A stretch of DNA of 64,000 nucleotides from Chlorokybus atmophyticus (lineage: Eukaryota; Plantae; Mesostigma and Chlorokybus algae). Shown here piece after piece: positions 4,081-56,174 of this stretch. The DNA is taken from NCBI GenBank assembly GCA_009103225.1, contig RHPI01002823.1:5003-69002 (forward strand), read 5' to 3'. Under the pieces are notes generated by a model that worked only from the letters and a program-made list of their open reading frames with translations, ran no database searches and was not told the DNA's origin. Position numbers and translations under genes: made by a program. Every line of letters starts with the position of its first letter. The stretch's first letter is position 1.

Positions 4081-4511
4081 TTAAAGTCGCATGGGCACCG
4101 TCCATCTCTTAGTACGCAGTGAGTAAAACCTTTGGGATTGGCATTTGCAGACGCAGAGGCGTTGCATGACTTTTTTCTTCACTTTAGTGCACTTTCCCAC
4201 TTTATTTAACTTTGCTTTCTTTCTCTTTCTCACACTCTTCACGCGTAGTGTGGGCCCATAACCTGTTGAGAAGCAAGCATGCAAGCGAAGAGGGCAAGCA
4301 ATGACACACAGGAGAAGGCAACACCGAGCTACAACGTTTCTTCTACATCGCCTGGAAGTCTCTTGACTCTGTACTTGACTCCGTGCCTGGAACCTTCTCA
4401 ATTGAAGTCCTCGCCTGGACCTTTCTCGACTGGCACCTTCTAGCGCCTGAATCTTCTCGCGGCTATTCTTATTTAGAGAGCGAGCTGACCGATACAAGAA
4501 TATCCTCAACA
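4081..4511 (-). mobile_element. Copia 5' LTR (4264-4511, family B) with PBS (4250-4263) and truncated leader
   Basis: TGTTGA...TCAACA termini. The minus strand reads LTR-GGTTATGGGCCCAC. The LTR is homologous to 11475-11869 and to the reverse complement of 17457-17927. Confidence 0.85.
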
Positions 4512-15354: not shown

Positions 15355-16938
15355 CTGCTGTAAGGAATATGCGGGTGTTTGGCTGCATTGCGTATGTGCT
15401 GGTACCCAAGCAAAAAAGGAAAAAGCTGGATCCTGTCAGCCAGAAAGGTATTTTCCTTGGGTGTGAATCAAACTCAAAGGCATATAGAGTGTTGATGGAC
15501 GAGACCAAAAAGATCATCATCGATAGAGATGTTGCTTACCATGAAAGCATGAGAGCACAGCAGCAGAAGAGCCCTGATCACAATGATAGCTCTGGTGATG
15601 AAGACATGAGCTCTGATGACGAAGATGAAGGTTTGCATTGCCATGAATACAGCACTGAAGACACTATGCCTTACTGGGGTAGAAGTGATTCTGAGTCTAA
15701 AGAAAGGGAGCTCAACCCTTGAAGAACGAGTAGTGCTGCAGCGGGTGGTGGACAAAAACATCGTAAGCAGCATAATCGGCAACAAAGCAACTAGCGAGCA
15801 TATCTTTGGCGTGAGAGGCATCAGCCTGATTGGTCCGATGTACAAGAAAAACAGAACCTGCAACATATGAAGAAGCACTGCGAGCAGCAAATTCTGAGCA
15901 ATGGCGCCAGGCGATGGATGAGGAAGTTGCGTCGCTGCATGCAAGCGATACTTGGGAGCTGGAGATTCCACCCCAAGGAACAAAGCCCATCTCCGTCAAC
16001 TGGGTATATAAGGTGAATAGAGACGGTCATGGCAACATTGAGAGATACAAGGCCAGGCTCGTGGCAAAGGGATTTTTGCAACAGCAAACAATTGACTTCA
16101 ATGAAATATTTGCTCTAGCTGAGAAGTCGGCAACTTTCAAAGCTATGGTGGCAGTTGTTGCTGTGGATAACCTGGAGTTTCGTCACCTTGATGTCAAGAC
16201 AGCCTTTTTGTATAGTGAGCTGGAAGAGGAAATCTACATTCAGCAACTAAAAGGGTATCAGGAGGGACCATCTGGTGCTGCATGCAGGCTGGTCAAGGCA
16301 TTGTAAGGGCTAAAGCAAGCACCAAGAGTGTCGCATGCGAGACTTTGCAAGGAGCTCAAGAAACAAGGCTTCACTGCAAGTCTAGCTGATCCTAGCTTGT
16401 TCAATTCCGGAAACAAGAGGATGTGGTTGTTGGTGTACGTGGATGACATTGTGATTGCGGCAGCACAAATGTAAGATGCTCAGCGAGTGAAGACTCAGCA
16501 AAAGACTGCATTTAAGTGCAGAGATCTAGGCGAGACCACATACTTTCTCAGGGTAGTTGTTAAAGGAACAGGGCTTCGGGAATCATCCGCATCACTCAGG
16601 AGCAGATGGTGAAGCAATTGGTGGCAAAGTTTGGTTTGATAACGCAAAAATAAGAGAGGTACCCTTGAGTGTGGGAGCTAAGTTGGTCAGAGCCGGAGAC
16701 AGCGGTAAGGAGTCAGACAAGCAGAGGTATCCCTGCTGTGAGCTTATTGGAAGTCTTGTCTACTTGTCAGTGGCATCAAGACCAGACATTGCACATGCTG
16801 TGGGACAGTTAGCAAACTACATGTTAGCCCCAATAATGCAGCATTGATTGGCAGCAATGGGAGTGTTGCGCTATCTGTCAACAACAGCGGCAATGGGCAT
16901 CGAGTATGGCTAGGGCAATGTAGAACTGCTGGGCTACT
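15355..16938 (+). mobile_element. Copia integrase C-terminus plus RT fragment; inverted near-copy of 21664-23242
   Basis: MRVFGCIAYVLVPK, KARLVAKG, DVKTAFL, LVYVDD, SRPDIAHAVG. ORFs 16258-16449 and 22160-22351 translate almost identically. Confidence 0.92.
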
Positions 16939-17283
16939 TGTTGACTAGAGATGCTGCATGCAACCATGCACAAGAAGCATATACAGCACAGTGGTAAGAG
17001 CAGAGCTACACCGCCAACGAAGTGACTAGAGAAGTGAACTCTCCTCAATAACCCGCGGCCTGTCGGCTCTGGGCCCTCAATCTGGGTCCTACCAAAGACC
17101 AGACCAGACTGTACCAGGTCCAATTGCCTGCAGCCTATGCATACAATTGCAGTATATGAGTAGCTTATCAAGTACCAGCGTAATAAGCTACAATAGGGCT
17201 AGCTAAGCTGATTGGACAATAGCACATAAGTGTCATATGCTATACATGTAGAGAACACTGAATAACATGCTTTATTCTCCACA
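16939..17283 (-). mobile_element. Copia LTR, family C, with non-matching flanks
   Basis: TGTTGACT...TTCTCCACA, homologous along its length to LTRs 20830-21164 and 26114-26446. Flanks CTACT/CTCAG are not a TSD, so this is a rearranged junction. Confidence 0.8.
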
Positions 17284-18300
17284 CTCAGCGGTGGTCAGCT
17301 CTTCCACAGCGGGGAGGTTTCCACTTGGCGCGGACGCGGTGTGCACGTGACCCATGGCGTGCGGCATTCATCTTGATCGGGTGGCCAAGGATAGAGCACA
17401 CGGTAGCTGTGCTGCACCTGGTGGCGACGATCATCCTTGGAGTGGACATTCTCGATTGTCGAGGATATTCTTGTATCCGGTCAGCTCGCCCTGTGGATAA
17501 GAATAGCTGCGAGAAGATTCAGGCGCGAGAAGGTGCCAGTCGAGAAAGGTCCCGGCGAGGACTTCAGTCGAGAAGGTTCTAGGCGTGGAGTCGAGTTCGG
17601 AGTTTGGAGACTTTCAGGAGCTGTAGAAGAAACGTTGTAGCTCGGTGTTTATATGATTGTATGGCGCGTGTTATAGCTTGTTAGAAAGCTCTTTGGTAGT
17701 AGCTACGTGGTGCAACTTAGAGCGCAAGAATCGGTTGAGTGTAGAAGTCGTGGTGACTCTAGAGTAGACAGGTGCAGAACTGGCGGGTATATAAGCTCGC
17801 AGTGTGACTTTGTTGTAATCCTTGGAACGCCTTTTTCGGATCAGCCTTGCGTGTATACTCTGGTAGAGTGTGTGTGCTTGTGCTTGCACCAACTCCATGC
17901 ATGATCAGTAGTGTCCAAATCTCAACATCGATGACGTATGCCAAGGGGTGTTGAATCTGGTGGTGCTGCAGGCGGTGGATGACTCGCAGCAGCTCTAAAA
18001 AGAGTGTGGACCGTGGATCGTTAGCCCCTGTCCTGTGCCGGCCTTGGAGTGACCATGGCACTTTCATCCAGCAATCAACAGATCCACATTGCCCAAGGCA
18101 CTGAGATAATTAGCCGAGATGAGGCGGATATCTTGAGGCAGAGCCTTAAGACTTCCACGCAATGCCGACAACGGCAGGAGGTGTGGATAGCGCAAGTGCA
18201 ACTGGCGTAGATAATGGTATTCAACAGTCTGAGCATGCGCATCATGGTCACAGTAGTAATACTGAGTCACCTTGACAGCGGTGTTGAAAAGAGATAGCTA
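17284..18300 (-). pseudogene. C5 cytosine DNA methyltransferase domain inside a retroelement polyprotein (motifs II-VIII; motif I deleted; split by a solo LTR)
   Basis: Minus strand: VTQYYYCD...LPQDIRLISANYLSALGNVDLLIAG*KCHGHSKAGTGQGL/DPRSTLFLELLRV...HPLAYVI|ENVHSKDD.../CSILGHPIKMNAARHGSRAHRVRAKW. This matches motif IV (G-W-P-C-Q-G-x-S-x-A-G; Cys codon at 18058-18060), motif V (DPRS-LF), motif VI (ENV) and motif VIII (GS-x-H-R-x-R). Confidence 0.85.
17457..17927 (+). mobile_element. Solo Copia LTR (family B) with 5-bp TSD TCGAT
   Basis: TGTCGA...CTCAACA, with TCGAT at 17452-17456 and 17928-17932. The first ~190 bp closely match the reverse complement of LTR 4264-4511. Confidence 0.92.
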
Positions 18301-18319
18301 TTATTCTTAAAAGGGCTGC

Positions 18320-18500
18320 TGTCCAGCGATGCTGCTGTGAGACCCAAGGCCTTAGCCGAGTGTTTGCCAATGATACATGGTTGTGCCCCTCCATCCAGCA
18401 TTACGCGCTTGGGCGTACGTTCATTAATTTGTACATGCTTGCCCTCGTTGGCAACCATGACGGCCTTGGCGTTGAGCCGTGCGCGATCGTCGGGACGTTG
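18320..18500 (-). pseudogene. Retropepsin-like aspartic protease of element G1
   Basis: VQINERTPKRVMLDGGAQPCIIGKHSAKALGL: hydrophobic-D-G-G-A variant of the DT/SG active-site motif. Confidence 0.7.
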
Positions 18501-20829
18501 AGGAACAGCAATTGCGTGGGGTGTTGCTCTAGGGTGCTGGACCTTAAGGCTACCATAGCTCGTCTTCCTGCAATAGGAGCTGTGCCCTGTCCTCATGCAC
18601 TCCCTTGTTCTGTTTTACCCCCTTGCCCTGCCCCTTGTCCGGGTGGTGCCGGCACTGGTGGTGGATTGCGACGAGAAGTTGGGTCAGTAGCAGGAGCTGC
18701 TGGTGGTGGTGGTGGATAAATGCGTTCCATTGCTGCCACTGCCTCCTTGTTGGTCCAATAGAGTGCATGAGCGGCCTCATAATAGAGTGCGCAAGCGTGC
18801 CCTCCCATATGGCTGAGGGGTGACAACGCCAGTCGGCGAACTCCTCCACCTGAGGCATAGGCGTGAGGTAGACGGCGTGTACCAGCTGCCTTCTCAATGC
18901 GTCGCCAATGGTGGGTATCCCAAGGATGCTCCGCATGTACGTGTCCCATTGGCCTCCAGTGATCCCTACGTCAATCACTGTTATGGCTCACCCTCTCAGG
19001 GTGAGCCATAACAGTCGGGCGAGTCCTGCTGTTGACGCTGAATGTCATAAGCCTGAGCGATGCGCCGAAGTTGCCGTGCTACCTCAATGCCTGGTAGATG
19101 CATGAGGGCGACCTCCGTGGTGATTCTATCACGAATGCCATAGGGACGCGTCTGGTCCACCACTTAGTCGTAGGCTTGCCGTATGGAGCGCATAAACGCA
19201 CTCATCCAAGGCAGTGTCGATGGAAATGTGAATAGTGGAACTGCAAGGTGTTTGTTGATAAACCATGTGAGTACTTGAGCCCGTCCTCCCGTGGTTTGCT
19301 GTAGTAGCAGTATCCCTCTGAGTGTGGCGCCTTCCGAGCCTTGTTGTTGCAATGTTCCCTACATGACTTTTTGCAGCAGGCGTGTGCGCAATTGTTGCTC
19401 CCCGTGTGTTTGTTGACAAGCGAGATGCGGGTAGGCTCCTTGTTGAAAATACCCCTTCCCTGGTCGACGTTGATTTGCTGGCCAATTGTTGGTCATGTTG
19501 ACGATAAGGGCAGCGATTTCTCCCCTGAAATATAGACACAATATCTGCTCAACACCTCCGTTTAAGTGAGTCTGATGCGCTCTCGGTCCTCGTTGGTGGG
19601 ATGCTGCGGCTTGTTCACCCGAATGTTGTCATATGTTTCAGCGCGGGTGTCAGTAATAAGGACACCAGCTAGTGCTTCGTCAATGTCCCGCTAGACATCT
19701 TTAAAGTGGTCCCGTTTGCGACGGCAAACCACCTGCTCTTGCTATTTACGGAACTGGCGAGCCCGATCCAATGCGTAGAAGCGGCGGCATTGATTACGCC
19801 ATGAGCATGTGGCCAACTCAAAATCGTTGCCCAGCGGACGCGCAGCAAATGCCCAAAACAGTTGAACCACTACGGGTACAAGTCGTCGAAGTGGTCCAGG
19901 TTGGACGGCTCTTGGTTGGGTGGCAATGCTGGATGCTCCGGGGCCAACTAATGACGGTTGTTCAGATCCTACAACATGGTGAGGGTTTTGTCGGTAATGC
20001 GCAGGGTGTCAAGGTCGTGGCCCAGCTCCTGACGATGGAGAGGGACAGCATCAACACCATATAGCAGGGCATCCTCGTCAATGCGCCACATGAACTGGTC
20101 ACCTTCAACGTGCGCCGGGGTGATTGGCATGCCAGCGGCGGTACGCGCTGGTCCTTGTCTGAGCGAGAACTGTGCTGCTGGTACGATAGCTGCGTTGGTT
20201 GAGGCTGCCTCCGCTATCGTGGACGTGGAGGGCCCCGCCCCTGTGGCAGCCATGGTGGCCGTTAATGGTCCGGCCACAATTGTTTCCAAGGCAACGATAT
20301 TGAGCTGAGCGGTAGCCACAGTAGTGGTTGGCTGCGCAGTGGGGTCACCAGCGACAATGGTTGCTGCAGATTAGGTTGCTGCCATCGACTCGGCAGCAAG
20401 GACAGCTGACGTTGCAGCGACAGTTGCTGCGAGACCTTTACTGACGGCAGCGGTGGCGGCTGTTGTGGCGGCTTGTGTGGCAGCAGCTGTAGTGGGATCC
20501 GCAAGGGCTTTCGCTGATGCAGACAATGACTCGGAGACACCAGTGGTGGCAGCCGGTGAAACCGCTGTGGTTGTTGCTGCTAATGTTGCCGCTTGGCCTG
20601 CAAAACCAGCTGTTCCACCTGTGGAGGATGGCCCGGCGTCCCCTCGGGTTCGCCGTGGTGGCTGCACGCCCGTAGGCGGGGTGACTTCCTTGTAAGCGTT
20701 AAGCGCTTCACTTTCTTACAAACGCTTCACTCTCATTGCTGCCCAATGTGCCGTGTACCATGCGCGATATTCATCCTCGCTGCCCTTCATCGCGTAAAGC
20801 TTATCCATCCATGCTGTGAGGGCAGCAAC

Positions 20830-23800
20830 TGTTGACTGGAGCTATTGCATGCAACCATGCACAGCATACAACATACACATGCAATGGTTGAGCTTGTGCA
20901 AGCTACACCGCTAGAATACTTGCTCGAGAGTAGATTGTACTCGTAAGACGCGAGCTGCCTCGGCTCTGGGCCCTGACTCAGGTCTTACCAAAAAGACCAG
21001 CCCGAACTGTGCCAGTTCTAGCCGCCTGCAGCCTATACACATTTGCAGTATAGAGTAGCTTATTTTATGTCACCAGATAAGAGACTCAGAGTTCTTATAG
21101 ACAAGCTGACTGCATACAAGTCACGAGAGTCATAAACCATACATAACATGATCTATTCTCAACACTCCCACGCAGGCAGCTTGGCTAGCTTCTCGCTTCA
21201 AGTCTTCAAGCCTTCGCTTCAACTTCAATGCCAAGTCCTTCACAGCATGTCCAGAACTTCGCAATAGACAATGCCTTGGTCATGAAGTCAGCAAGCATGC
21301 CTTTAGTCCTGCAACAACTAAACTCCAACTCTCCTCTCGCCACTCTGTCTCTCACAAAGTGATGATGCACATCAATGTGCTTGCCCCTTGCTGAGCGGAT
21401 TGGATTCTTCAGTAACTTCACAGCTCCCTAATTGCCACAATGGATCTTCACTCTCTCCAGAAGGTGCCCATGATCCGCCATCAGTTTCCTAAGCCAAAGT
21501 GCTTCCTTTGTAGCTGAAGCGGATGCCATGTACTCTGCTTCTGTAGTGGATGCAGCCACAGCAGGTTGCAACTTGATGTTCCAGCTGATCACCCCACCAC
21601 CAAGTTTGTACACTTAGCCAATAGTTGACCTCCATGTATTCACATCACTAGCATAGTCTGCATTACAGTAGCCCTGCAGTTCTACATTGCCCTGGCCATA
21701 CTTGATGCCCATTGCCGCTGTTGTTAACATATAGCGCAACACTCCCTTTGCTGCCAATCAATGCTGCATCATCGGGGCTAACATGTAGCATGCTAACTGT
21801 CCCACAACATGTGCAATGTCTGGTCTTGATGAGCCACTGACAAGTAGACAAGACTTTTCAATAAGCTCACAGCAGGGATACCTCTGCTTGTCTAACTCCT
21901 CATCGCTGTCTCCGGCTCTGACCAACTTAGCTCCCACACTCAAGGGTACCTCTCTTATTTTTGCGTTATCAAACCAGACTTTGCCACCAATTGCTTCACC
22001 ATCTGCTCCTGAGTGATGCGGATGATTCCTGAAGCCCTATTCCTCGTAACAACTACGCTGAGAAAGTATGTGGTCTCGCCTAAATCTCTGCACTTAAATG
22101 CAGTCTTCTGCTGAGTCTTCACTCGCTGAGCATCTTACATTCGTGCTGCCGCAATCACAATGTCATCCACGTACACCAACAACCACATCCTCTTATTTCC
22201 GGAATTGAACAAGCTAGGATCAGCCAGACTTGCAGTGAAGCCTTGTTTCTTGAGCTCCTTGCAAAGTCTCGCATGCGACACTCTTGGTGCTTGCTTCAGC
22301 CCTTACAATGCCTTGACTAGCCTGCATGCAATACCAGATGGTCCCTCCTGATACCCTTTTGGTTGCTGAATGTAGATTTCCTCTTCCAGCTCACCATACA
22401 AAAAGGCTGTCTTGACATCAAGGTGACGAAACTCCAGGTTATCCACAGCAACAACTGCCACCATAGCTCTGAAATTGCCAACTTCCCAGCTGGAGCAAAT
22501 ACTTCATTGAAGTCAACTCCTGGCTGTTGCGAAAATCCTTTTGCCACGAGCCTGGCCATGTATCTCTCAATGTTGCCATGACCATCTCTCTTCACCTTAT
22601 ACACTCACTTGACAGGGATGGGCTTTGTTCCTGGAGGTGGGACCTCCAGCTCCAAAGTGCCGTTTGCATGCAGCGACGCAACTCCCTCATCCATTGCCTG
22701 ACGCCATTGCTCAGAATCAGCTGCTCGCAGTGCTTCTTCATACATTGCAGGTTCCGTTTTTCTTGTACACCGGAACTTAACTAGCTAAAAATAACCGCAC
22801 ATGAAACCAATCAGGCTAATTCCTCTCACGCCAAAGATATGCTCGCTGGCTGCTTTGTTGCTGATTATGCTGCTGATGATATTTTTGTCCACCACCCGCT
22901 GCAGCAGTGCTCCTTCTTGTAGGGTTGAGCTCCCTTTCGTCAGACTCCGAATCACTTCTACCTCAAGATATAGTGTCTTCAATGCTGTATTTATGGCAAT
23001 GCAAACCTTCATCTTTGTCATTAGAGCTCCTGTCTTCATCACCGGAACTATCACTGTGATCAGGGCTTCTGCTGCTGTGCTCCCACGCCTTCGTGGAAGA
23101 CAACATCTCTATCGATGATGATCTTTTTGGTCTCGTCCATCAACACTCTATATGCCGTTGAGTCTGGTTCATACCCAAGGAAAATACCCTTCCGGCTGAC
23201 AGGATCTAGCTTTTTCCCATTTTGCTTGGGTATCAGCACATACAGTCTACCCTCGCTAGAAGAATACAGTCTGTCACCGAGGTTTCTAGTATAATGGCGG
23301 GGGTACTCCATTGATCGCTATAAAATTGCTTAGTCTTACAACGCATATTTGCATAAATATAATTATGTTGAAGGAAATGAGCAAATAACACTGCGTTTCT
23401 TACAACATGAGTGATATAATGAAACACACACACACGTGCATGACACACCACATTGCCTTCTTTGTACATACACATATGTATGCAATTGTACTTGCATGTG
23501 CATGCGGAGCATCACACACATGCGCACGCTTGCACGCACGCCCTCGCGCACGCGCAGCCTTGCATGCATGCATACACTTTGCGCACACGCTCATATGCAT
23601 CATCATCACCATCATCGGTAACAACAACATCTACTCAATCTTCATTGGGTCTGCACCTGCTACACTTGTAGAAGCGTCTGCAACATCAGCACCACGCGTG
23701 AAAAACTTAAACAACCGTGTCTGCACCGACGCACAGAAGATTTGGCGACACAACACCGCATTGCGAACACGGCGCAACCATACTAGAATCTCAACTGAAA

Positions 23801-26446
23801 TCATACAGTCGTTACTAGGAATAAAAGCCTCTACTTTGCTAAGATGATCCAAGCATTGCATGACGGTCACTTGCGCGGGCGGTATGTCGTCGTCATTCTC
23901 CTCCTCTTGGGTACCAGCACATACGCAGTGCAGCCAAACAGCCGCATACTGCTTACAGCAGGAGCCTGCTTATAAAACAGCTCCCACGGAGTCTTTGCCA
24001 AAGCATGTACAGGTGACCTGTTCCTGATGTAGTTGGCTGACAGGACCGCCTCTGCCCACCAACAATACTCCGGCTTGGCATCACTGATCATCGCTCTCAC
24101 ACTATTCGTTAGAGTCAAGTTGAGTCTCCCACTTCGCCATTCTGCTGCGGAGTGTAAGGAGCGGGTGTCTGAACAATGCCTTTTGCAGACCAGAAAAATG
24201 CTAACACCTCATTCATAAACGTTCCTCCCTTGTCACTGCTTACTGTCTTCACATTGTGCCCTGATTGCGTCTTCATCCAGAGCAATACCTCCTTCACCAC
24301 AGCTGGTACAATAGACTTCAACTTCGACGGACGCACGATGTATAGCTTTGAAGAGTTGTCAAGGAAGGTGACAATGTACGCAGCCCCCCTTTGACTTCTC
24401 AGACAGTGGACCACACACATCTGATTGCACTAGCTGTCCCACGTGCTTGCTGGCGTTCTATGAACTTGGAAAGGGCGACCTGTGCATCTTAGACAGCACA
24501 CATGGCTCACACAACACTAACCTAGCTTCCTTGACTTGCTGCTTACTCACATTGATGCCTTTGACCAAATTCTCAGCAATCAGCCTCTTGAGGTTGTCAT
24601 AGCCCAGATGACCATATAGTCTATGCCAAAGCTCATCTGATTCTGCCGTTGTAGCCACCAATGCAGTATCAGACTCTGCCTCTTTTATCTTATAGAGACC
24701 TGCAGGCTGTTCCCCTGCAATTAAGCAGAGCTTGCCATTGAACTGCAACCAGCACTTGTCTCCTCCAAATAGTTTGGCACCTGCCTTCAGCGCACTCCGG
24801 GCAGAGAAGAGGCTTGCCTGTACACCAGGTACATGGAGGACTGACTTCAACTCCACCCTTTGTACACCTTCTCCAACCTTGCATTGAAGTACAGCACTGC
24901 CTGTACCCTTCACATCCAAATTATGTCCCAAGGTGGGGTGGGGTGGGGCTTCCACCGTGCGAGGTGTCACTTGAGCCTTGTACTCGTGAAGTAGACCAAC
25001 ATCAGAAGTTTGATGCTGAGTATAGCCAGAATTAAACACCCACGCGGGATATTGCCTGCTTGTAAATGCTGTGAAGGCAACTGCACCTCCACCACCATTG
25101 TTGTGCCCTCCAGAGGTATTGCCCATCCCAACCTTTTTCTCCTTCATCTGCAGAGAATCCCTCTTTAAACGACCTTCCTGCTTGCAATGGTAACACTAGC
25201 CTTCAATGAGCTTCTTCTTCTGAGCTTCTTCTTTTTCTGTTCTCCCTTGCCACCACCACTGCTTCCACCAGAGTTGCTGTTGCTGGAGTTGCCCTTGCTG
25301 CTAGTTGCATCTCTTTGAATTCTCCATTTCGCTGCATGGGCATTGGCATCACCATCAGCATCGTTGCTCCTGATGCTAGACTCTGTCTTCAGCAGCACAG
25401 GCAGAATCTCACTCTTCAACTTTATTGATGCACTCCTTCCTTCAAGTATGATAACCACAACTTCGTACTCTCTACGCAGCACGGACAGCACACTCAGACA
25501 CAAGTTATCCTCTGAGACAGTCTCTCCAATAAAAGTCAAATCATTTCTGAGCTGCTGTGCACGTCCTTGATACTCTGTAACTGTCTCTGAACTCAGCTTT
25601 CTCATACTATTGAATACTTGCTTGAGCTCAATCCTACGACCAACAGAGCGTGTGGCAGACAAATTTTCCGGTGCTTCCCATGCTGCTTTGGCATCAAGAC
25701 ATGACTGCAGCATTGGCCTATGAAACGGCTCAATACGCATGCACATCAAAGCCCAAGCACGCATACTCTTTTGCCAAGCAGACTCATTCCCAACTGGTAC
25801 ACTTAGCTTTGGGTCAACGTAGTCCCAAAACTCTTTGTAAATTAGCTTCATCTTCATCTCAAAGCTCCAGCTGGCGTAGTTGTCATCTCCCAGGGCTTTG
25901 ATGGTATACTTCTCCCTCTCTGCATCTATGGTGGTTGCCATTGAATTCTCCAAGCCGCTCAACCTTCAGCAAATTTCCAGCAGACCTCTTGCCTGTTCGC
26001 CTACCCTCTTAGAACAGCTCCACCAAGTTCTAGCAACGTTTCAACGTCTTACACAGAGGACAAACACTCTCTCAAGCTACACACAACTCTAGCATGGGTG
26101 TGGGCCCATTACCTGTTGACTGGAGCTATTGCATGCAACCATGCACAGCATACAACATACACATGCAATGATTAAGCTTGTGCAAGCTACACCACTAGAG
26201 TACTGACTCGAGAGTAAACTGTACTGATATAACGCGGGCTGCATCGGCTCTGGGCCCTAACTCGGGTCTTACTAGAAAGACCAGCCCAGACTGTGCCAGT
26301 CCTAACTGCCTACAGCTTATATAACTGCCGTATAAAGTAGCTTATCTAATGTCGCTAAATAAGCTACTCAAAGTCCGAATTGACAAGCTCATTGCATATG
26401 AGTCATGAGAGTCATAAACCATGCATAACATGCTCTATTCTCAACA
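20830..26446 (-). mobile_element. Full-length but dead Ty1/Copia (family C): LTRs 26114-26446 and 20830-21164, PBS 26100-26113, TSD GCAAC
   Basis: Both LTRs TGTTGA...TCAACA; GCAAC at 20825-20829 and 26447-26451; minus strand LTR-GGTAATGGGCCCAC. Gag 25165-25962, WVFNSG protease, integrase, RT and RH present with many stops; PPT CTGCGTGGGAG. Confidence 0.95.
23243..23898 (-). mobile_element. 3' end of a pogo-like (Tc1/mariner) DNA transposon inside the Copia integrase
   Basis: Terminus TA|CAGTCTACCCTCGCTA matches the TIRs of the MITEs at 50055 and 51673. Minus frame QEEENDDDIPPAQVTVMQCLDHLSKVEAF...LRRVR...SVQTRLFKFF resembles pogo/Tigger C-termini. Confidence 0.65.
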
Positions 26447-26639
26447 GCAACCACCTCTGTGTTCTTTGCAATAGGAGCTTTGCGGCGTTGCCTGCCTTTA
26501 GTCCACCTTGGTGGTTCTGTTTTGATTTTGGAGGGTTGTTCTTCCCCCGATAGCCGTTGTTAGCTTGCTCCTTGCCCTTGTTGTCGTTGATGTTGTTGTT
26601 GTTATTGTTGTTGTTGTTGTTGTAACCGCTGCTACCATT

Positions 26640-27850
26640 TTAGCTGGTTGAGAGTCTCAACTCAGGGTGCTTAGCGTAGCAGACTGCCTCCAAGTGTCCG
26701 GTCTTGTGGCAGTGGTCATACGCCAGGTTCCCGTACTCCTCCGTGCAATCCTTTTTATAGTGGCAACCATGGCAGACGACAGGGGCAGATAGTGCAACGT
26801 GAGCTGACTTCGCAGAAGATTTGGGTGTGCTGGTGAGATAAGACTTGCGGTTACGTCGGCTGGGGTCTGGAGCATAGGCATTAGCACGTGAGGGACCAGA
26901 TTTCATATCCAACACGGCTATCATCCACACCTGGCGGTCATGGATTGCCCGGGCTGTTTCAAAGGCTTGAAGCAACGAATACCCTTCTGGTCGGGTATTG
27001 TCGAGAGCGTTGTCCACCGTCCTGTTCAGTGGAGGCTCCAGTTGGCTGATGATCACCACGGCGGCAGCCTCGTCGCTAAGGATCTTGTAGTTGGTGTCCT
27101 TCAGTGACTTGACCATACGGGTGTCAGTGCGCAGAGGATCCTCCCCTGCTTTGCGCCTGCAATGATGCAACTCCTCCATCTTCAGACTGGTCTGTGGTGG
27201 GAATGTGCGCCGAAGCGCCAGATACAAGTCCTGCAAGGGTGACAACATACGGTACACCCTGACGGTGAGGGTGGGTTCTCGCATGCTGACCGAGCCTGAA
27301 GATAGTAAACTGCCTGCAGCCGTGGCTACGGTTCCCCGAGTTGTTGTCCGGATTGGAGTATCAGGTACAGCAACGCGATGTCGTGCTTGTGCTTCCCCAA
27401 GCGCAAGTTGTTGCTCTGCCGTTAGCCTGAACGCTAAAGTTTGCAACTGGGACCAGCGTGCGTGTTGGGCTGCAGCCAACTCGCAGTCGACCAATGCAGG
27501 ATCAGCTGCTAGTATATCTGCTGCAGCTGTTAACTGCGCTGCGGTGAAAGCTTCCGTAAGAGTAGGGCCTTTCAGTGGGGCAGCTGGAACAATGAGCATG
27601 GCAGGGACGCCGGGAGTTGATGCTTCCATGGGCAGAGCTTCGGTGCCGGCCAGAACTCAATACCCACCAAACTCATGCTGTGCAGCAACTGACCTATACA
27701 TCTCATGTGCCTCGTGGTCTAAGCAAGTTGCAGCCATGCGAAAAGACATTACATCTGACTAGTTGGGAGTCTTAATCGTATGGTAGCTCATCTTGGAATC
27801 AACCTTGATGATGCATTTGTCCATGGTGTTGTGCCAGGACGTCCGAAGAA
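26640..27850 (-). pseudogene. Gag-like ORF of G1 with tandem Zn knuckles
   Basis: ORF 26640-27629 ends CHGCHYKKDC...YDHCHKTGHLEAVC and is homologous to 31532-32128 (CHCSGRYGHYQKEC...CDYCHKTGHLESVC). Homology extends upstream through stops. Confidence 0.75.
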
Positions 27851-28089: not shown

Positions 28090-28980
28090 ACTTTCTCACT
28101 AGTGTAGACTCACACATGCAAATTGCACGGTGAGCGCCGGAGAGAGCGAGGCAGAGTGTGTGTGCTCTATTAATGCTCCCCCCGTGCTACCACCCAACAC
28201 ACTAGTGCTGGCAATGATAACCGTGAATGCACTATGTGCTGGCAATGATAACCTAACATTGATGCAACCATCGCGGCTGCAAGAATGCAAGCCACCCTGA
28301 TGCACGACACTCACTTGTACAAGGAGGATGACACTGTAAGTCAATACGCCACTACTAGAGGTAGTGCTGGTTATACAATTCCTTGCATGAGGTCAAAATA
28401 TTTCCACTGTTAAGTACAGTACATGAATGCGGCAACTCGTGGATGCCACACTCTGATGCGGACTACACAACGTGCACCCACGCAACCACAATCACATCAA
28501 GTGACAAGCAATGCACGTGTGCATTCACTGCATTTTTTGACGTGTAGATGTGTCTTGGCAAACGGGGCGGCGAGGTGATGCAGTCACATCAAGCCACAAC
28601 CTTCAGAGAGCAAGTCCCGAGCACTCCGAAGATCAACATCCATAATTCTTAATTTCAAGTCTTTCAGTTCTCACTTATAGTGTCATCAACGTACAAAGAC
28701 TAAGCCCTAAGCCTTTATAGTCAAGCTACAAATGTTTAGTTCTAAGATGACGGCTAGTTTACGAAATGACCATCATCAAGGCAAAGACAAACTCGCAACG
28801 GATCAGCTAGTACGGCTTATATTAGGTACCTACGAAGACTAACCAATAATTGCTTACTGACTGTTGCGCGAGACTCATGCCGGTAGCCGGAATTGATGTC
28901 TGGCTGTGGGCATAGCTGATCACAAGGGTTGCTGATGCTGGTAGCACGGAAACAATGCCTGTCTGTAGGCATCAACAAGG
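28090..28980 (-). repeat. Putative 5' LTR of G1; diverged direct repeat of ~32910-33790
   Basis: Colinear shared blocks, e.g. GAGTGT.TGTGCTCTA, CACACTAGTGCT, GGTAGTGCTG, CACTGTTAAGT, GCTGGTAG..CGGA.ACAATG. Exact ends not resolved. Confidence 0.55.
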
Positions 28981-29878
28981 AAGTTGGCCTCTCCTGGATC
29001 GCTGGCATGACAGCCCTCCTTGTCCGAGGCCTGGCCCGAACCGTCCTTGTCTTGGCTGTTAGTATACCCGCTGCGGCCTGGGTGCTGGCGGTGCTGCCTG
29101 TGGCTGCCTTGATTGTGGCGCAGGGGGATTGCGCCTCTGTGTGGCCGGGGTGATATCTGGCGGCGTAGCAAGTGGCTGTTGGGGAAACCCTGGTGGACAG
29201 GGTGTTTGTGGGGCCGCCTCCCGTGCAGCCTGTTCTTCCACATGAGTCCAGTGCGCAGCATGAGCTGCCTCCCTGGCCAGTGTACCTTCCCATATGGCTG
29301 TTAGATTGTGTGACCACGTCACTCTAGCGATGGTTCTGAGGCATGGGCTGGAGATACACTGCGCGCAGGAGCCGCGCTCTTATTTCGTGAGTGATGGTGG
29401 GAACCCTTAAGATCCCGGCTATGTAGGCATCCCATCTGCCATTGACCACCCCCACTTTCAGCACCGTTGTTGCTCGTACTTGCACAGTGAGGTAAATCTC
29501 TGGCTGTTGGACATGCTGCTCATAAGCAGCTGCGATGCGTCTGCGCTGTCGCACTGCTTCCACTCCTTGCAACCACAGTATGGCCTCTTGATGGCTGCTG
29601 AGGCAACCTCGTCATATGCTTGCCGTAGCGGGCGTAGGAAGGCGTCCAACCATAACAATCTAGTGCTGAATATAAATAGAGAGATTGCGGGGTGATTGGT
29701 GACTAGCCAAGTCACCAGTCTTGCTCGCGCTGCATTGCCACCTTCTCGCATCCCCATCATCCATCTCAAGCCGACGCCTTTTTGTCGATGTAGCATGGTT
29801 GCTTGTCGCAATAGGGCAGTGCGAACTTGCTGTTCCCCAACTAAGCCTGCTCCATCTCGTTGTGTACACCCTTCTGGT

Positions 29879-30130
29879 GTAAGGTAGCCTCCCCCTGAAT
29901 CCTGTTGATCGTCAGGCAAGTCTTCCACGATGGCGGGTAACAGCGGAGCGATCCCCCCCCCCCTGGTTTGTTGGGCCAGCACCCTCACCTGGTCACTGTT
30001 GGTGTGTGGTGTAAGGTAGCCTCTCCCTAAATCTCGTTGATCGTCAGGCAAGTCTTCCACCAAGGCGGGTAACAGCGGAGCGATCACCCCCTTGGTTTGT
30101 TTGGCCAGCACCCTCAACTGGTCACTGTCG
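29879..30130. repeat. 132-bp tandem duplication inside G2
   Basis: GTAAGGTAGCCT...CACCCTCA.CTGGTCACTGT at 29879 and 30011; encodes repeated IAPLLPA.VEDLPDDQ.D.G.GYLTP. Confidence 0.85.
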
Positions 30131-32690
30131 GGCTCAACGGCAAGAGGTGTCGTGCTAAACGATGGGCCAGCGATTGTCGGTTGAGGAGCAGAAGCAAGGG
30201 CTTGCGCTCTTGTGCTGATTGCTGCACTTTGGTTTTGTCGCTAGGCAAACGCTTGTTCCAGAGCGGTGTAGCGCTCGTGAAGCCGAACGGTACTGAGGGG
30301 TCTCAGTGCTTCGTTGTCATTCAAAGGCATGTTAACTGCATCAGCGATGTGCTGCTGCACGTTGGGTTGCCAGTCTCGATACATGTCCAGCGGGCTTGGC
30401 TAGAAAGGCTCGTAACGGACTAGTGCGGGTTGGCGTGGCGCCGTCTGCATGTTGTTATGCAGCGTCCAGAACAACCGTAGGGCCAACTCCAGTACAACAG
30501 GTGGTCTGACCACAAAGATGCGGTCTCGCATGGGAGGCGCCGTGCCGGCGAGGATTTCATCCTGTAGTTGCCGCTGAGTCTGTTCTAGCAGGGTGTAATA
30601 CTCAAGCAATGGGAAGACGCGATCACTGCGTCCAACCCGCGTTGTGCGCTCTCCTCCTCGCCCAAAAGCAATGGTAGTGGGATCTGCTGCACACATGATG
30701 GTCTCCCATGCGCGCTCAGCTTGCTTGCAGGACAGCCTGAATGACATTGAGGACGGGCAATGTAGCTGCGCGCGTCATTGCAGTGGCAGCGGACTCGACG
30801 ATGGCACTAGCAGTGGTTGCTATGGTGCCGCTCAGTGGCGCGAGAGTGGTCTCAACGCTTGCTGACACAGGTGGTCCTGCAATTGGAGCGGCACTGGTGC
30901 GATCTACTGCTGCAGAATGGGTGACAGCAGTGGCTGTCGTCAACATGCTCACCAGAGTTGGCGTAATAGTGCCCACCGATGCACCAACTCCTGGTGCAAC
31001 TGGAGTAGTTGCTGCTGACGTTGACGGAGACGACGTCGTAGCCGGTGTGGTTGTTGCTGCTAATGCAGCACCAATGGTGGCTTCAATGGAGGTAGCTGCT
31101 GATGATGTTGCGGCTTCCCCTCGAGCTCGTTGGGGTGGTTGAACACGTGATGGAGTGCTCGTGTCTCTCGTGCGCTTTGGAGCCATCCGTGCCCATCCGG
31201 CAGAGTAGCAGGCGCGGTAGTTTTGCTCTCTATCTTCCTTCAAGCGTGCTATACGCGCCATGAGGGCAGCAATATGGTCATCAGCTGGCGGGTTGGTCGG
31301 AGCCTTGGCGGCAACAGCAGCAGCGCGTGAACGTCCTTCTAGTCCTTTGTGCTGAGGAGGTTGATTCTTCCCCCTGTAGCCTTGCTCTTCTTTGCGAGCG
31401 TTGGCGTAGTTGTTGTTGTTGTAGTGGCCTCTGGTGTGGTTGCTATTGTTACCACCAGAGTTGTCGCCATCGTGGCCTCCAGTGTTGTTGCTGTTGTAGA
31501 TGCTGGCAGGTCTCAACTCAAGGAACTTGAGTCAGCAGACTGACTCCAAGTGGCCCGTCTTGTGACAATAGTCGCAGACCAGGGTTGAGAACTCTTTGGT
31601 GCACTCCTTTTGGTAGTGCCCATACCGTCCACTGCAATGACACAGCACAGGGGCAGGCAAAGCAGTATGAGCTGACCGTTTCCCTTTGTCGCGTGCTAGT
31701 GGAACGTCCCGGCCACATTCTTGGCGAGGAGGCTCAGTAGTTGTGCTGGCTACAGGCCGTGAGGCACTGCGGTTGGTGTCCAGCACCGCCTCCACATACA
31801 CCAAGCGCTTATGGATGGCTTGTGCGGTCTCGAAAGCTTTCTTGAGCGTGTAGCCAAGGATCATGCTGTAGTTTAGGGTCAGGCGCGTCGACTCGCTCAG
31901 GGTGGCATCCAACTCAATAACATACACCACTGCAGCAGCCTCGTCACTGATGATCATGTGGTCAGTGTTCTTTAGCAGCCCTTTCAGTCTGGAGTACAGG
32001 CGTAGAGGGTCCTCGTTGCGCTTGCGTCGGAATCGTCTCAGCTCCTCCACTTTGCTTGTGGTCTGAGGTGGGAAGGTGCGACAAAGTGCAGCGTATATCC
32101 TTGAGTGGAGAGTCAGAGATGGCAGCACTTACAGTAATGGCAAGTGCGCGCAGTGCGACTGACCCCGAGGGTGAAAGCACTGCCTCCCGCACGAGGGCCA
32201 GGGGTAAAGGTGTGCCCACCTTTACGGCTGCAGCTCGTTGTTCTTTAAAGATAGCAGCAGAACGGTCCAAGATCCGCGCCCGTCGTGTGGCCGTCTTGGT
32301 CTAAATCTCTGCAGGGGTCAGGTTGACAATCACCAACTCAGGCTCCTCCTCCTCTGCCTTGTCAATGGCTGCCGCTATGGACAAGCCGGTGACTGCAGCG
32401 GGAGTGGCAGGTGGAAAGGCGGCTGCTGGACTGTGCAGCGACGCAGATGCTATAGCGCTGGCGAGCTCGCCATAGCCATCAACTCGATGCAGTTCAGCAA
32501 CAGACTTTCAGACATCATGTGCTTTATGATTAAGATACTGAGCAGTAATGAGAAAATAGATCTCACCTGACCAGTCTTTGTTTCTTGAGTGCTTGCTGTC
32601 GCATCTTGGAATGGAACTTAATCATGAATTCGTCAAGCGAGGTAGTGCCAGCATGTCCGAAAAAGCGCAGGGATGTGGTTGAGCTGGAAG

Positions 32691-32699
32691 CCTCCCCCC

Positions 32700-32758
<59 letters not shown>
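32691..32758. repeat. (CT)n microsatellite in the G2 leader
   Basis: Direct reading. Confidence 0.95.
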
Positions 32759-32760
<2 letters not shown>

Positions 32761-34219
32761 GTCGTCACTAACGGACGATAGTGGGGAAGCTCGATGGCGA
32801 GGAGTAGACCGGACCGGAGTGAAGCTGGAGACAGAACGCGAGCCTTTGCTGCTGCGATTGTTGCTCCCGTCACTGGTCCGCTCGTAGGTGAGATTGGGGC
32901 CAGTTGCTGAGGTCACCCTTGTGTATTGGAGAGAACGGGGTGGGCCTGCTCATACAGTCCATAGGTGAAAGTGTATGCAGGACTGAGTGTTTGTGCTCTA
33001 CTGCATGTCTTGATGCCGCTACCACTCACCACACTAGTGCTTGTGTGTGCACTATGTGATGACAGTGATAACGAATGCACAGGGATGTATCCCCAGCTAC
33101 AGACTGCACTATCTGATGCAGAATGCGACGCACTCACTTGAGCAAAGAGGGTGACACTGCTAGTCAACAAGCCACTGCTATAGGTAGTGCTGTTTACACA
33201 GTTCTTTGCATGAGTGGAAAGTGTGTTACACTGTTAAGTGAGGTGAATGAGCAAGCAACAGGTGGATGCTATGCTTTAACTGATGTCAACACGCACACCG
33301 CGACCAGGCACACCAAACTCACAGCAATGATAAGCGCGGTGCATACGAGCATCCACAGGCTCTCACACGGTGAGGGGTTTCTTGATAACCGGGACGGCGT
33401 GTTTGTAGTTCAAGTCGCTTCACAAGCTCTTAGCTTTCTCACTCACAGTGTCACCAGCTGATCCGGTGAACGCTGTGACTACTTATACAAGTCAAATCAC
33501 GTCTGTTTAGAACATAAGCTAACGGTCACATCGAGGCTATTTTCACAGAAATCCCCATTCGATATAGAACACAACATATGACTGAACTCAGAACTGAACA
33601 GCTACACGCGGTGCCTACGTAGGCTATGGCTATGAGCTAATCTAGAGTCATGACCTAGCTACTGGTCAGTGACGCGCGGGTTGGTATGCTGGTAGGCCGG
33701 GCGAGGGTTTCGATGTAGGCATGCCCGATGAAGGCTGGTAGTCGCGGACAATGGGCATGACACACAGCTAGTTCACACAGCTTGTCGAGTCTGAAGATGA
33801 GGATGTGGATCAGGTGAGCAAGAGTTATGTGTGCATTTACGAATCACTTGCTTTACCTGATGAAACAAGAGATGGATCTATGAGAGACGGAACCGCCAAT
33901 GGTAGCAAGAACTTGATTATCTATTGCCCGCTAGTTAGGGCTCAAACATCAGCAAGTTTTCGGTACCAGCTGCTTTGTTTCCGACATTGCAAGACACCTT
34001 CCATTTGTAACTGCGCTATGCTGCATTGGCACATTGTTCCATGTTCTGTCACTAGCATGCCAAGTATAAGAGCAATGTGTGCTATTATGGCATGCTACCA
34101 TGCACGCGTGACATATTTTATAATGACATATTGTATATAGCAATGTTTTACGGTACGGCTACCAGCACACCATTATAGCAAGTTGTAGACTATTGAGAGT
34201 ATGACATCTGTTGCGGACA

Positions 34220-36275
34220 TTTTTTTTTTTTTTTTTTTCACACACATACACATTGAGGGAAGAGTTTGTGCAGAAAACAAACTAGTGCTAGGTACAGGGC
34301 TTACTCTAGTCTAGAGTAAGCTAGTGAAAAGAAGACTGTGTTTACGATGAACAAATCTAGGTGAGTAAGGGGGGCGCACGGGAAATGTCCTGTGAAGGGT
34401 GAGCCATGGGAGAGTTGGATGAAGCGGAAGAAAAGGGGGGAGGGGGGAGGCTGTGCCAGGTTATGCTAGGATGTAGAAGGCGCCATGAGGGAGTGCAAAG
34501 AAAGTGGTTGTGCCCCCAGCCGGACTGGAAGCGAAGGAAGGAGCGGAGTTTCTTGTCGGCTGAGGAGACTGTAGACAACATGCACTGCCAATCTCCCTTT
34601 GTCAAAAGGAGGATGGAGTGAGACAGGGGGTGGACGCAATCCGAAGGAGAGAGGGTGACACTGTCGAAGAGAGAGCGGTTGCGGCTCAACCACAGGTGCC
34701 AGAGGACCAGTGGAATCAGCTGCGGGAAGAGAGGTTTAAGGTGAGGGGGAGTTGCAGGAGGAAGGAGAAGAAGGTGACGAAGAGAGAGAGGGAGAGGGGG
34801 TCCCGCTAGGCCAGCCCAGACCTTTGCGAACCACTGCCATACTGCAATGCTGAAGGGGCATTCAATAAAGAGGTGGGAGGGGGTCTCCACCGCGTCCAGG
34901 GTGCATAGCACGCACTTGCCCGCCGACATGTGGAAGCGGAGGAGGTGGTCCCCTGTGTAAAGGGCTTTGTGGACAAGCAGCCAAGTGAAGGAGCGAATGG
35001 AGCCCTTTAGGGGAGCGGAATGAATCCTTTTCCACACGGAGGGCCAGTGTATTCCTTGCTTGTCTTCTGCAGTCCACCGCTTCAGAGCTGGGATGTCTTG
35101 GGAGTGTCGTGCTGCAATGGCGGAGTAGCCCAGCTTAGACCCATAGTCCCATAGTGAGGTGGTGGAAGGAGAGGGAGGGTGAAGAGTTGTCCACTCTTGC
35201 ATCGAAGGGTCAAGATGCAGAATGCTCAGAGGGGCGCTGCCTGCCACACGCCAGCCAAAGAAGCGGATGCCTGGTGGGGAGTCAGCAGCTTGTCGTGTTG
35301 AAGCTTGTGTCAGAGACAACAAGGAGCTCCAACGGCGAGGGGGTGGAAGAACCCGAACTCGAACCAATCTGCTAACAGGCAAAGACAATGATGAAGGGGA
35401 GGATAGAGTGTCCTGCTCTTCTCCTGTCAGGTCGAAGGCTGTGCCACTGCAGCGGTTGTCAGAGCATTGCTCCACATGCAGGACTATCTGTATGCGGGAT
35501 GAGTTGTCGGGGGAGCCCCACCATTCACCTGCAGCGGGGGAGCCTACCCCAGCCGAGAGAATAAGACGCCATCTGTCTGGGATAGAGGAAATCAAGGTGG
35601 CGAGCTGAGCTTGAACTCGAGAGGTGGATGTGTGAGGCAGCCAACGACACAGCTCCTCAGCTGAGTAGAAGGAGCGGCGTGTAGGGCTCCAAAGGTCGCG
35701 GATGGTGAGAAACTCTGCAACCACCCATGAGCGCCACTGCCGTCGTGAGACTCTCGTTGCTGCTAGCACTCCTTCCTCAGGGTGCTGGATGTAGGGGTTG
35801 AGAAAGATGTGCTGCCGCAGCACTGAGTCGTATGTGTCTGGCTCCGGGGGGTGAAGAGGACGCACTTGCTGCCAGGCTCGGAAGATGCGTTGCCAGTGTG
35901 AGGGTAGATGTTTCATTGGCAACCCCGGGGAGGAGAGGAGTGCAGCTCCAATGGGAATCCATCGAACAAGCTGCGGGGTAGGGTGATGTTGACCATGCTG
36001 ACGTGCTGAGGGGAGAAGTTCATTGCCCCACCAATCCAGGTACCTGTGGCCGAGGATCTTCCAAGCTGCCCAAGACGGATCTGAGAGTCTGGCTGACCAC
36101 TTGGCTAGCAATGCCGTCGTTTGCCAACCTGGGTCGTGTATGCCTAAGCCTCCTAGCCTGCGGGGGTGACATACAGTCGACCAGTTGACTAGTTCCCCTG
36201 CCTGTCTTGGCCGTTTCCAGAGGAAGGAGCGGATGCTTGATGTGATTGAGGAAAGGGAGGCAGGTGAAGGCGCAA
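34220..36275 (-). mobile_element. 5'-truncated L1-clade LINE (ORF2 C-terminus, 3' UTR, poly-A)
   Basis: Frame RSFLWK...LVNWSTVCHPRRLGGLGIHD...ALLAKW continues into ORF 34357-36111 with zf-RVT motif IRSFTWLLVHKALYT...CVLC...ETPSHLFIECPFSIAVW. T19 at 34220-34238 is the poly-A tail on the minus strand. Confidence 0.9.
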
Positions 36276-36289
36276 CATTGAAAGGTTGC

Positions 36290-54039: not shown

Positions 54040-56086
54040 GTTGCACAGGCGCGGTGGAGTCCTTCAACTCAGAGGGACAGGATTCAACAATGTCGTCTGC
54101 ATTGTGTCAAAAGGCCTGTTGGTACAAGTGGAGCGGGGATGAACGTCCTGGCAGTGGTGCTCAACGCCGCCCGGAAGCACCCTAATTTGGGCATGATGCG
54201 GTGTGACCCACACCGGCGATCACGACCTCAGGTTGGTCGGTTGCAGCATGACCGCTCCATAATGCGTCGTTGACTCCCGAGCAGGTAAGCGGTTGGTTAT
54301 TATGCTTGGACTGACATACTCGCACGCGTATGCACTTGGGTACCACCCAATAATATGAACAGACTCAAAACACGCACCCGGTGCATGCGCGGCACATGCA
54401 CGCATACCTACACGCACATGCATGCACTTGCAAGTGTGCACATGCAAAGTACAAGATTCTCATATGCCGAACACGTACATTCACACATCTGCGCATGAGC
54501 GTGCATGCACACACGCGTACCCGCCTGCAAGGACGCCTGCAGGGACGCGCACATACACGAAAAGGCATGCACAGGGCCTAACGACGCCATCGTCACCGTA
54601 ACGGTCGCCTATGACCTGTATGTGTCCACAAGACATGTAGTTGATGCATGTGTATACGTGTGTGTTCTACGTGTTTGTGATCATAGCGCGTCCTTCTACC
54701 CCAACTATGCCACCAAGCCCCCCGCTGTGGCGACACTCTCATCGCCGCGGAGTCTTCCGCTGGCTATGCTCGCGGCCTCACCTTCTCTCACCCTGTGGAC
54801 GGTGTCTACGTCATTGACTCCACCTACCCACTGAGCTTTACCGTCATCACCTACGACCTCCCGTCGTACGCCTTCCTCGTGCTGTACACGCGGGTGCGTG
54901 GTCGCTTAGTGCACGAGGCCTTGTCACATTCGCATTGCATGCGGGGGCGCACGCAGCACATGCGTGCACATCAAATGACACAGAGCTCACTTTGTGCTGT
55001 GTGTGCTGTTTAAGCAGATGAGTGAAGCGAAGCTTTCCCAGTGAAGACCCGTACCTGGCGGAGTTAAGCTGTCACAACAGTCTTTGTAACTTACAAAGAC
55101 AGTGTGACATGTAGGGCTTGGTTGTACATGACTTTTGAATGTTTCGAGTAGTACATCAACTCATGTGTTTACACAGTGTTTAAACAGCCAACCAGCCAAG
55201 GAGTGAAGTGCTGCTGCTCTCCATCTTGGACTTGTAAGTCCGGCAAAAGCTTCGGCAACCGGGGCTCCGTTCAGGCTGACCCATATCTATTCGACCAGCT
55301 TCAGGGGCCCTACACCGTTGGAGACAGCGGGGTACGGCATGATGCGTGCGCATGAACGTCTCCCTCTCTCTCCCTCCCTCTCGCTCTCTCCCTCTCGCTC
55401 TCTCCCTCTCTCCCTCTCCCTCTCTCCCTCTCCCTCTCGCTCTCTCGCTCTCTCTCGCTCTCTCTCGCTCTCTCGCTCTCTCCCCCTCTCGCTCTCTCCC
55501 CCCCTCGCTCTCGCTCTCCCCCCCTCCNNNNNNNNNNNNNNNNNNNNNNNNNNNNNNNNNNNNNNNNNNNNNNNNNNNNNNNNNNNNNNNNNNNNNNNNN
55601 NNNNNNNNNNNNNNNNNNNNNNNNNNNNNNNNNNNNNNNNNNNNNNNNNNNNNNNNNNNNNNNNNNNNNNNNNNNNNNNNNNNNNNNNNNNNNNNNNNNN
55701 NNNNNNNNNNNNNNNNNNNNNNNNNNNNNNNNNNNNNNNNNNNNNNNNNNNNNNNNNNNNNNNNNNNNNNNNNNNNNNNNNNNNNNNNNNNNNNNNNNNN
55801 NNNNNNNNNNNNNNNNNNNNNNNNNNNNNNNNNNNNNNNNNNNNNNNNNNNNNNNNNNNNNNNNNNNNNNNNNNNNNNNNNNNNNNNNNNNNNNNNNNNN
55901 NNNNNNNNNNNNNNNNNNNNNNNNNNNNNNNNNNNNNNNNNNNNNNNNNNNNNNNNNNNNNNNNNNNNNNNNNNNNNNNNNNNNNNNNNNNNNNNNNNNN
56001 NNNNNNNNNNNNNNNNNNNNNNNNNNNNNNNNNNNNNNNNNNNNNNNNNNNNNNNNNNNNNNNNNNNNNNNNNNNNNNNNNNNNNN

Positions 56087-56174
<88 letters not shown>

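Follow-up and report, generated by a model that had tools for sequence, protein, structure and literature searches.

The minus strand of the analysed stretch of Chlorokybus atmophyticus DNA (64,000 nucleotides in full length, hereafter the window) carries an element, G1, that is likely the remains of the 5' half of a broken Ty3/Gypsy-type retrotransposon with the order gag, protease (PR) and a DNMT3-like DNA methyltransferase (DNMT). Its ancestor likely continued into RT, RNase H (RH), integrase (INT) and a PHD finger, and the DNMT would have marked the element's own cDNA. The order gag-protease-DNMT and the inactivating breaks are observed in the window itself; the full order is seen in relatives, and the 3' order proposed for G1 is taken from relatives only ~44% identical to it. 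What is left of G1 is a leader, gag, a long linker, half of a protease and a DNMT fragment; as a copy, it is dead.

All features of G1, as well as the insertions into it, are described on the minus strand. The non-coding block 5' of gag (approximately 28186-28446) is 70% identical to positions 33018-33269 upstream of gag in the sibling element G2, and is likely part of a 5' terminal repeat or leader. It is also all that remains of possible terminal repeats in G1, whose 3' end is lost. The 5' part of gag follows at 26452-27850 and contains two decayed zinc-knuckle-like motifs. A profile made from 41 PR-DNMT gag regions matches 27422-26619 (iE 1e-23), and the best BLASTP matches of G1 gag are the proteins P0184 and P0256 (E 2e-6); a Pfam scan of G1 yielded no gag family. 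Gag with a zinc knuckle, followed by a retropepsin, is the arrangement of Ty3/Gypsy LTR retrotransposons. A Copia element foreign to G1 is nested in gag at 20830-26446. It is delimited by a pair of LTRs (285 identities and 49 mismatches, ~85% alike) and by the target duplication GTTGC at 26451-26447 and 20829-20825, and the G1 frame runs on across it, matching G2. The linker between gag and the protease (18490-20824) consists of an Ala/Thr-rich part and conserved blocks with 48–64% protein identity to G2, and has no Pfam match. The N-terminal half of the retropepsin (18303-18489) contains the DGGA motif within VMLDGGAQP, its Asp encoded at 18395-18393. This half matches PF13650 with E 1e-3, below the curated cut-off, and positions 2–52 of the 116-position homolog profile with iE 4e-12; each of the 29 protease BLASTP matches below E 1e-3 is a PR-DNMT protein.

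The match to the protease profile stops at 18303, that to the DNMT profile starts at 18291, hence the segment 18292-18302 contains an internal deletion junction. Lost at this junction are the C-terminal half of the protease, a linker and DNMT motif I. In 32 homologs the corresponding span is 160–400 amino acids (median 213), and the tight PR-DNMT join in G1 thus results from a deletion of roughly 210 codons, a size taken from the homologs because the junction cannot be viewed in sibling contigs. Further downstream, a solo Copia-type LTR of 471 bp with TG..CA ends (17457-17927) is inserted into motif VI. It is flanked by the 5-bp target duplication ATCGA (17932-17928 and 17456-17452) and over 193 bp shares 88% identity with the LTR region of a Copia at 4320-4511. 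G1 ends at another Copia-type LTR (16939-17283), with ~72% identity to those at 20830 and 26110; its flanks differ and contain no target duplication. The rest of the DNMT and the entire pol (RT, RNase H, integrase) are absent. Altogether, the damage to G1 comprises two Copia insertions, an internal deletion and truncation of the 3' end. The LTRs at 20830 and 16939 were considered as G1's own and rejected: both are Copia-type, and the first one pairs with 26110-26446. A Copia RT region is present as an inverted copy flanking the 3' part of G1 (15355-16938 vs 21667-23243, 88–97% identical), and these inverted copies may have driven the rearrangement that removed the pol of G1.

Translation of the minus strand between 18291 and 17284 yields C5-methyltransferase motifs II–VIII in pieces, with the catalytic Cys kept. 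The first part (17933-18291) covers motif II to the start of motif VI, and the second (17284-17456, with two frameshifts) runs from the ENV of motif VI to just beyond motif VIII. Motif IV reads AG*KCHGHSKAG, where the stop codon (18066-18064) lies two codons ahead of the catalytic Cys (18060-18058); this Cys is preceded by K and followed by H, compared to P/E-C-Q in the family. DPRSTLF (motif V) comes after a frameshift near 18021, motif VI is split as YVI|ENV by the solo LTR, and motif VIII, GSRAHRVR (17353-17330), is followed by ten further family-like codons and then by the Copia-type LTR. Motifs IV, VI and VIII stand in the correct order with the catalytic Cys and Glu. In total, the domain has suffered one stop, three frameshifts and the LTR insertion, while the SAM-binding motif I is deleted and motifs IX–X are cut off. 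Since it lacks these motifs and carries the stop and the frameshifts, the G1 copy is unable to methylate.

These data largely bear out the earlier note, which had reported motifs IV, V, VI and VIII in this order on the minus strand (all four are present), loss of motif I by a deletion at ~18300 (the DNMT profile begins at its position 16, at 18291) and truncation of everything past motif VIII at 17284, where the Copia-type LTR indeed terminates G1. The segment 17457-17932 that it proposed to remove comprises the solo LTR and one copy of the target duplication. Its placement of the DNMT directly downstream of a retropepsin needs qualification, since the adjacency is real and yet a product of the deletion. 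Likewise, it described a real element at 17284-18300, which in fact reaches far upstream of this region.

The assignment of the decayed pieces was assessed by several searches. A search of 1.84 billion proteins with the 92-aa first piece yielded 255 matches at E ≤ 1e-3, and 25 of the 27 highly conserved family columns covered by G1 are matched. The G1 read-through with X at each break scored 195 bits on the homolog profile, compared to 3.4 bits for the best shuffle (500 shuffles, 382 of them reported), a test that is partly circular because members of the profile were found using a piece of the window. Single DNMT pieces reached E 0.15–0.17 and 12 bits at best against PF00145 (curated cut-off, 22 bits), close relatives reached 32–45 bits, and a word-index search with the 92-aa piece gave no matches.

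Judged on the profile and the predicted fold of relatives, the DNMT of the G1 class is DNMT3-like, nearer to DNMT3 than to DRM, DNMT2 or bacterial enzymes and with motifs in non-permuted order. The profile of 35 relatives matched solved structures of DNMT3A/B/C with E from 1e-27 to 1e-21, ahead of DRM (1e-15 to 1e-11) and HhaI (1e-8). For the structure model of the close relative P0024 (pLDDT mostly above 90 over the DNMT domain), all top matches listed are DNMT3A/B/C (E 3e-13). The catalytic domain of mammalian DNMT3A/3B is thus the best solved match, whether judged by the sequence profile or by the fold of P0024, and shares a motif VIII of the AHRxRxxWxNL type. In contrast to the mammalian enzymes, to which identity is ~20%, the domain of the G1 class has no PWWP or ADD and is embedded in a polyprotein. 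Ka/Ks of the DNMT among relatives equals 0.09–0.12 in the three unsaturated pairs of six (the three pairs with locus L001 are saturated), similar to 0.10–0.15 for the protease in the same three pairs. Values below 0.2 indicate that the DNMT of these relatives, to which this estimate applies, is under purifying selection.

Relatives show two main domain orders. Among 202 fetched proteins, 36 have the protease directly before the DNMT (class B), 57 have the DNMT after RNase H or before integrase (class A), 96 consist of DNMT only and 13 are other; the second homolog search started from a class B protein, and class B also supplied the protease profile. In class A the order is PR-RT-RH-DNMT-INT-PHD (RT-RH-DNMT-INT-PHD in P0028, P0050, P0102 and others), and the catalytic Cys is kept, commonly in CQDLS. 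Two class B proteins, P0183 and P0256, are single ORFs with the order PR-DNMT-RT-RH-INT-PHD. In 33 metagenome loci, retrieved through a G1-like protein profile by search patterns that favour class B, the protease precedes the DNMT in 24 and RT follows it in 20; PR, DNMT, RT, RH and INT all occur in that order in ten, and RT or RNase H upstream of the DNMT in none. The order PR-DNMT-RT-RH-INT, which the earlier note proposed to look for, therefore exists in relatives, and its reading of G1 as a decayed member of a gag-PR-DNMT-(pol) family is supported, the homologs lying in gag/RT-containing elements and not in host genes. Direct repeats of 342 bp (92%) are present in the relative L021, and among nine relatives checked for DIRS-like split terminal repeats no clear split pattern was seen.

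All 20 loci spanning DNMT to RT have a stop codon (TAG in 13, TAA in seven) followed by CARYY in the RT frame, 363–384 nt before RT (L001:4509-4517, L010:5083-5091, L014:4661-4669 and 17 other loci). This stop separates the gag-PR-DNMT ORF from the RT-RH-INT-PHD ORF. The loci form four families that are 52–73% alike in DNA, namely L001, L009/L010, L014 and a 16-locus family that includes five near-identical pairs, and the full CARYYA is present in three of the four. The same signal was found in six of nine further loci without RT, four loci with incomplete DNMT being left out. As a background, 0.85% of the 12,308 stop triplets in these loci have CARYY next. CAR-YYA is the readthrough consensus of TMV, as given in the accessible part of PMC2194720, and the stop with CARYY in the relatives is likely a TMV-type readthrough signal. 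Folding of 110 nt past the stop in four loci revealed no shared structure. Eight proteins, among them P0183 and P0256, the nearest relatives of G1, pass from DNMT into RT without a stop. G1 is cut before the corresponding position, so the signal is seen in relatives only.

If the preferred explanation holds, the DNMT would be made as part of the Gag-protease precursor and the element's protease would cut it free inside the particle. The enzyme would then methylate cytosines, probably in CG, on the new cDNA before integration, and the new copy would arrive already marked like host DNA. Here we follow de Mendoza et al., who proposed self-marking for DIRS elements in the accessible part of PMC5890265. 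The same element could instead have directed its DNMT to the insertion site or to host chromatin close by, upon integration or later, or have used it as a DNA-binding module, which we consider unlikely. In line with such a role, relatives end in a PHD finger, a domain of the chromatin-reader type. Moreover, the Klebsormidium domain, the only Gypsy-borne DNMT tested, was inactive in yeast, a result its authors call inconclusive in the accessible text of PMC5890265. The observed-to-expected CpG ratio also fits: it equals 0.77 in G1 and 0.48–0.73 in neighbouring Copia and LINE elements, that is, G1 is no lower than its neighbours and therefore shows no sign of extra self-methylation. Against this role, the catalytic motifs I, IV, VI and VIII are kept in 26, 24, 24 and 24, respectively, of 26 full-length class B domains, the DNMT of the PR-DNMT class is joined to Gag-protease and not to integrase, and the stop divides it from RT-integrase in 20/20 loci.

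The assignment of G1 to the PR-DNMT-RT class bears on another explanation, that G1 had the class A order and lost RT and RNase H in a 3-kb deletion, which joined protease and DNMT. Class A is common among the fetched proteins, and the PR-DNMT join in G1 is a deletion; however, class A is missing from the top 29 BLASTP matches of G1 (22 class B, seven DNMT only). In a quick DNMT tree of 90 rows, with DNMT-only and short rows left out, 55 class A rows lie on one side of a branch (SH-aLRT 91) and G1 on the other, placed with weak support (81) beside P0183, P0024, P0004, P0184 and P0100. Class profiles prefer class B for G1 in 6/6 splits, with 236/240 and 90/90 held-out controls correct. Motif IV of G1 is of the CxGHS form, compared to CQDLS as the commonest class A form, and CQG occurs in 0/48 class A proteins. 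By the tree, profile scores, protease and motif IV, G1 groups with the PR-DNMT-RT class, and the class A origin is very improbable. Class B is also separate (93) in a FastTree of RT-RNase H with 49 rows. The separation of the two orders in both the RT and DNMT trees suggests that the domain was either relocated or captured a second time.

A piece or retrocopy of a host DNMT3 gene might also have come to lie beside a Gypsy protease by chance, in line with the nested insertions of this region and with the break point at the join. Yet the DNMT piece of G1 has no introns, the best matches of its gag, protease and DNMT all fall into one polyprotein class, and there is no host-type DNMT3 among the named matches, which leaves chance juxtaposition with a slim probability, slightly below that of a class A origin.

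The relative P0018, which clusters with P0153 and P0154, is a DIRS-like protein with two methyltransferases in one ORF: RT is followed by a DNMT of this family and by a Dam adenine methylase (PF05869, E 6e-12). Its DNMT type is unlike the DNMT4-sister enzyme of EpiLTRs. P0018 matches strongly (E 1e-11) and shares G1's side of the DNMT tree, yet it is extremely improbable that G1 itself was a DIRS-type element with RT-DNMT-DAM: RT precedes the DNMT of P0018 and no protease was detected in it, whereas G1 has a retropepsin and a gag that matches Gypsy-type PR-DNMT proteins. In another match, P0070 (858 aa), a DNMT piece comes after RT and RNase H of Copia; this protein is probably a nested-insertion chimera.

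Among known systems, the Gypsy-type reading of G1 is closest in described features, as distinct from clade placement, to KnitGypsy-Dnmt3 of Klebsormidium nitens, and by this analogy G1 would have worked in the same way. Both KnitGypsy-Dnmt3 and the G1 class have an intronless DNMT3-related domain in a Gypsy-type polyprotein, with catalytic residues kept, and Ka/Ks is below 0.2 both in KnitGypsy-Dnmt3 and in G1's relatives. A streptophyte host is a further likely common feature; for G1, an At1g33420-like PHD gene in the window and the top Atlas cluster for a relative point to it. According to the accessible part of PMC5890265, the DNMT of KnitGypsy-Dnmt3 shares one ORF with RT and RNase H. This layout is that of P0183 and P0256, whereas four other class B families have the in-frame stop. 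In contrast to KnitGypsy-Dnmt3, G1 is dead and truncated, and its relatives are found in the land plant Marchantia polymorpha; no proteins named as K. nitens or Klebsormidium were among the homolog matches. SymbioDIRS-Dnmt3 and SymbioLINE-Dnmt are, like G1, retrotransposon-borne C5 methyltransferases, but as far as the available text describes them they belong to other retrotransposon classes in a dinoflagellate host, whereas G1 has a retropepsin and a Gypsy-type gag. SymbioDIRS-Dnmt3 is DNMT3-type, and the accessible part of PMC5890265 reports de novo CG methylation in yeast for this enzyme only. EpiLTRs/DAM-LTRs, as presented in the accessible part of bioRxiv 10.64898/2026.05.21.726589, are LTR elements that, like the G1 class, combine a DNA methyltransferase with a chromatin-reader domain. 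Their DNMT is sister to DNMT4 and accompanied by DAM and a chromodomain, whereas the G1 class has a DNMT3-like enzyme and a PHD finger; no DAM domain was found in the PR-DNMT proteins scanned. Streptophyte Gypsy-DNMT3 is already listed as known in the accessible text of a 2026 preprint and is mentioned in passing in that of PMC12344493. With G1, a type of element known since its description in 2018 gains a further host lineage.

Marchantia polymorpha contains many copies annotated as hypothetical, e.g. Mp4g09160, Mp5g06330 and MpVg00370. P0170, P0224, P0225, P0231 and P0232 are gene models of this species from several chromosomes, ~1280 aa long; named hypothetical or CCHC-type, they are gag-PR-DNMT ORFs with a common end point. 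Many class B proteins, including the Marchantia ones, end at the place that corresponds to the stop of the 20 loci. We consider it slightly more probable than not that the broad gag-PR-DNMT3-RT-RH-INT-PHD lineage, G1 included, reaches land plants and that in a large branch of it DNMT and RT are separated by a leaky stop of the TMV type. If so, the leaky stop would yield DNMT in Gag-like amounts, with RT and integrase as a minor product, and each particle would hold many DNMT copies to methylate its own cDNA; the conserved stop context thus predicts the amount of the enzyme and its place of action. Marchantia polymorpha is a genetic model, and its multi-copy open frames make the function of transposon-borne DNMTs testable. 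A literature search, with most subscription journals outside its scope, returned no report of a leaky-stop gag-PR-DNMT3 arrangement or of this element class in bryophytes, and the accessible text of PMC6317226 mentions neither PHD nor a methyltransferase.

Directly upstream of G1 lies G2 (29000-33269, minus strand), a sibling reduced to leader, gag and linker. The gag profile matches it at 32092-31112 (iE 7e-25), and the protease and DNMT profiles gave no match. The linker, of ~850 codons, has conserved blocks common to G1 (18725-19283) and G2; the conserved block of G2 had no usable match in Atlas and Pfam. Run X1 placed 104 contigs on 16900-21200, some of them on Copia LTRs rather than on G1, with identities of at least 99% (five contigs), 95–99% (12), 90–95% (25) and below 90% (62). 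In one contig 17375 is connected directly to 17951, the solo LTR being absent, and four contigs deviate from G1 where it has the premature stop; no intact G1-type copy was found among these contigs. Runs X2 and X3 gave no contigs here. They show that G1 belongs to an element family in this organism. X1 is possibly the window's own source, and the contigs therefore provide no independent support.

The rest of the window contains a long GA microsatellite (41350-41900), an N gap (55400-56200) and, at 44500-45030, a G/C homopolymer of ~400 bp, possibly an artefact of the assembly. A 645-codon open frame at 34357-36294 represents the 3' part of a LINE with zf-RVT (PF13966, E 3e-12), and a perfect 26-bp palindrome lies at 36363-36416. 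Two host genes were identified: an At1g33420-like PHD-finger gene at 46826-50051 (PF25565, PF00628) and a photolyase/cryptochrome gene at 60267-62074 (PF00875).
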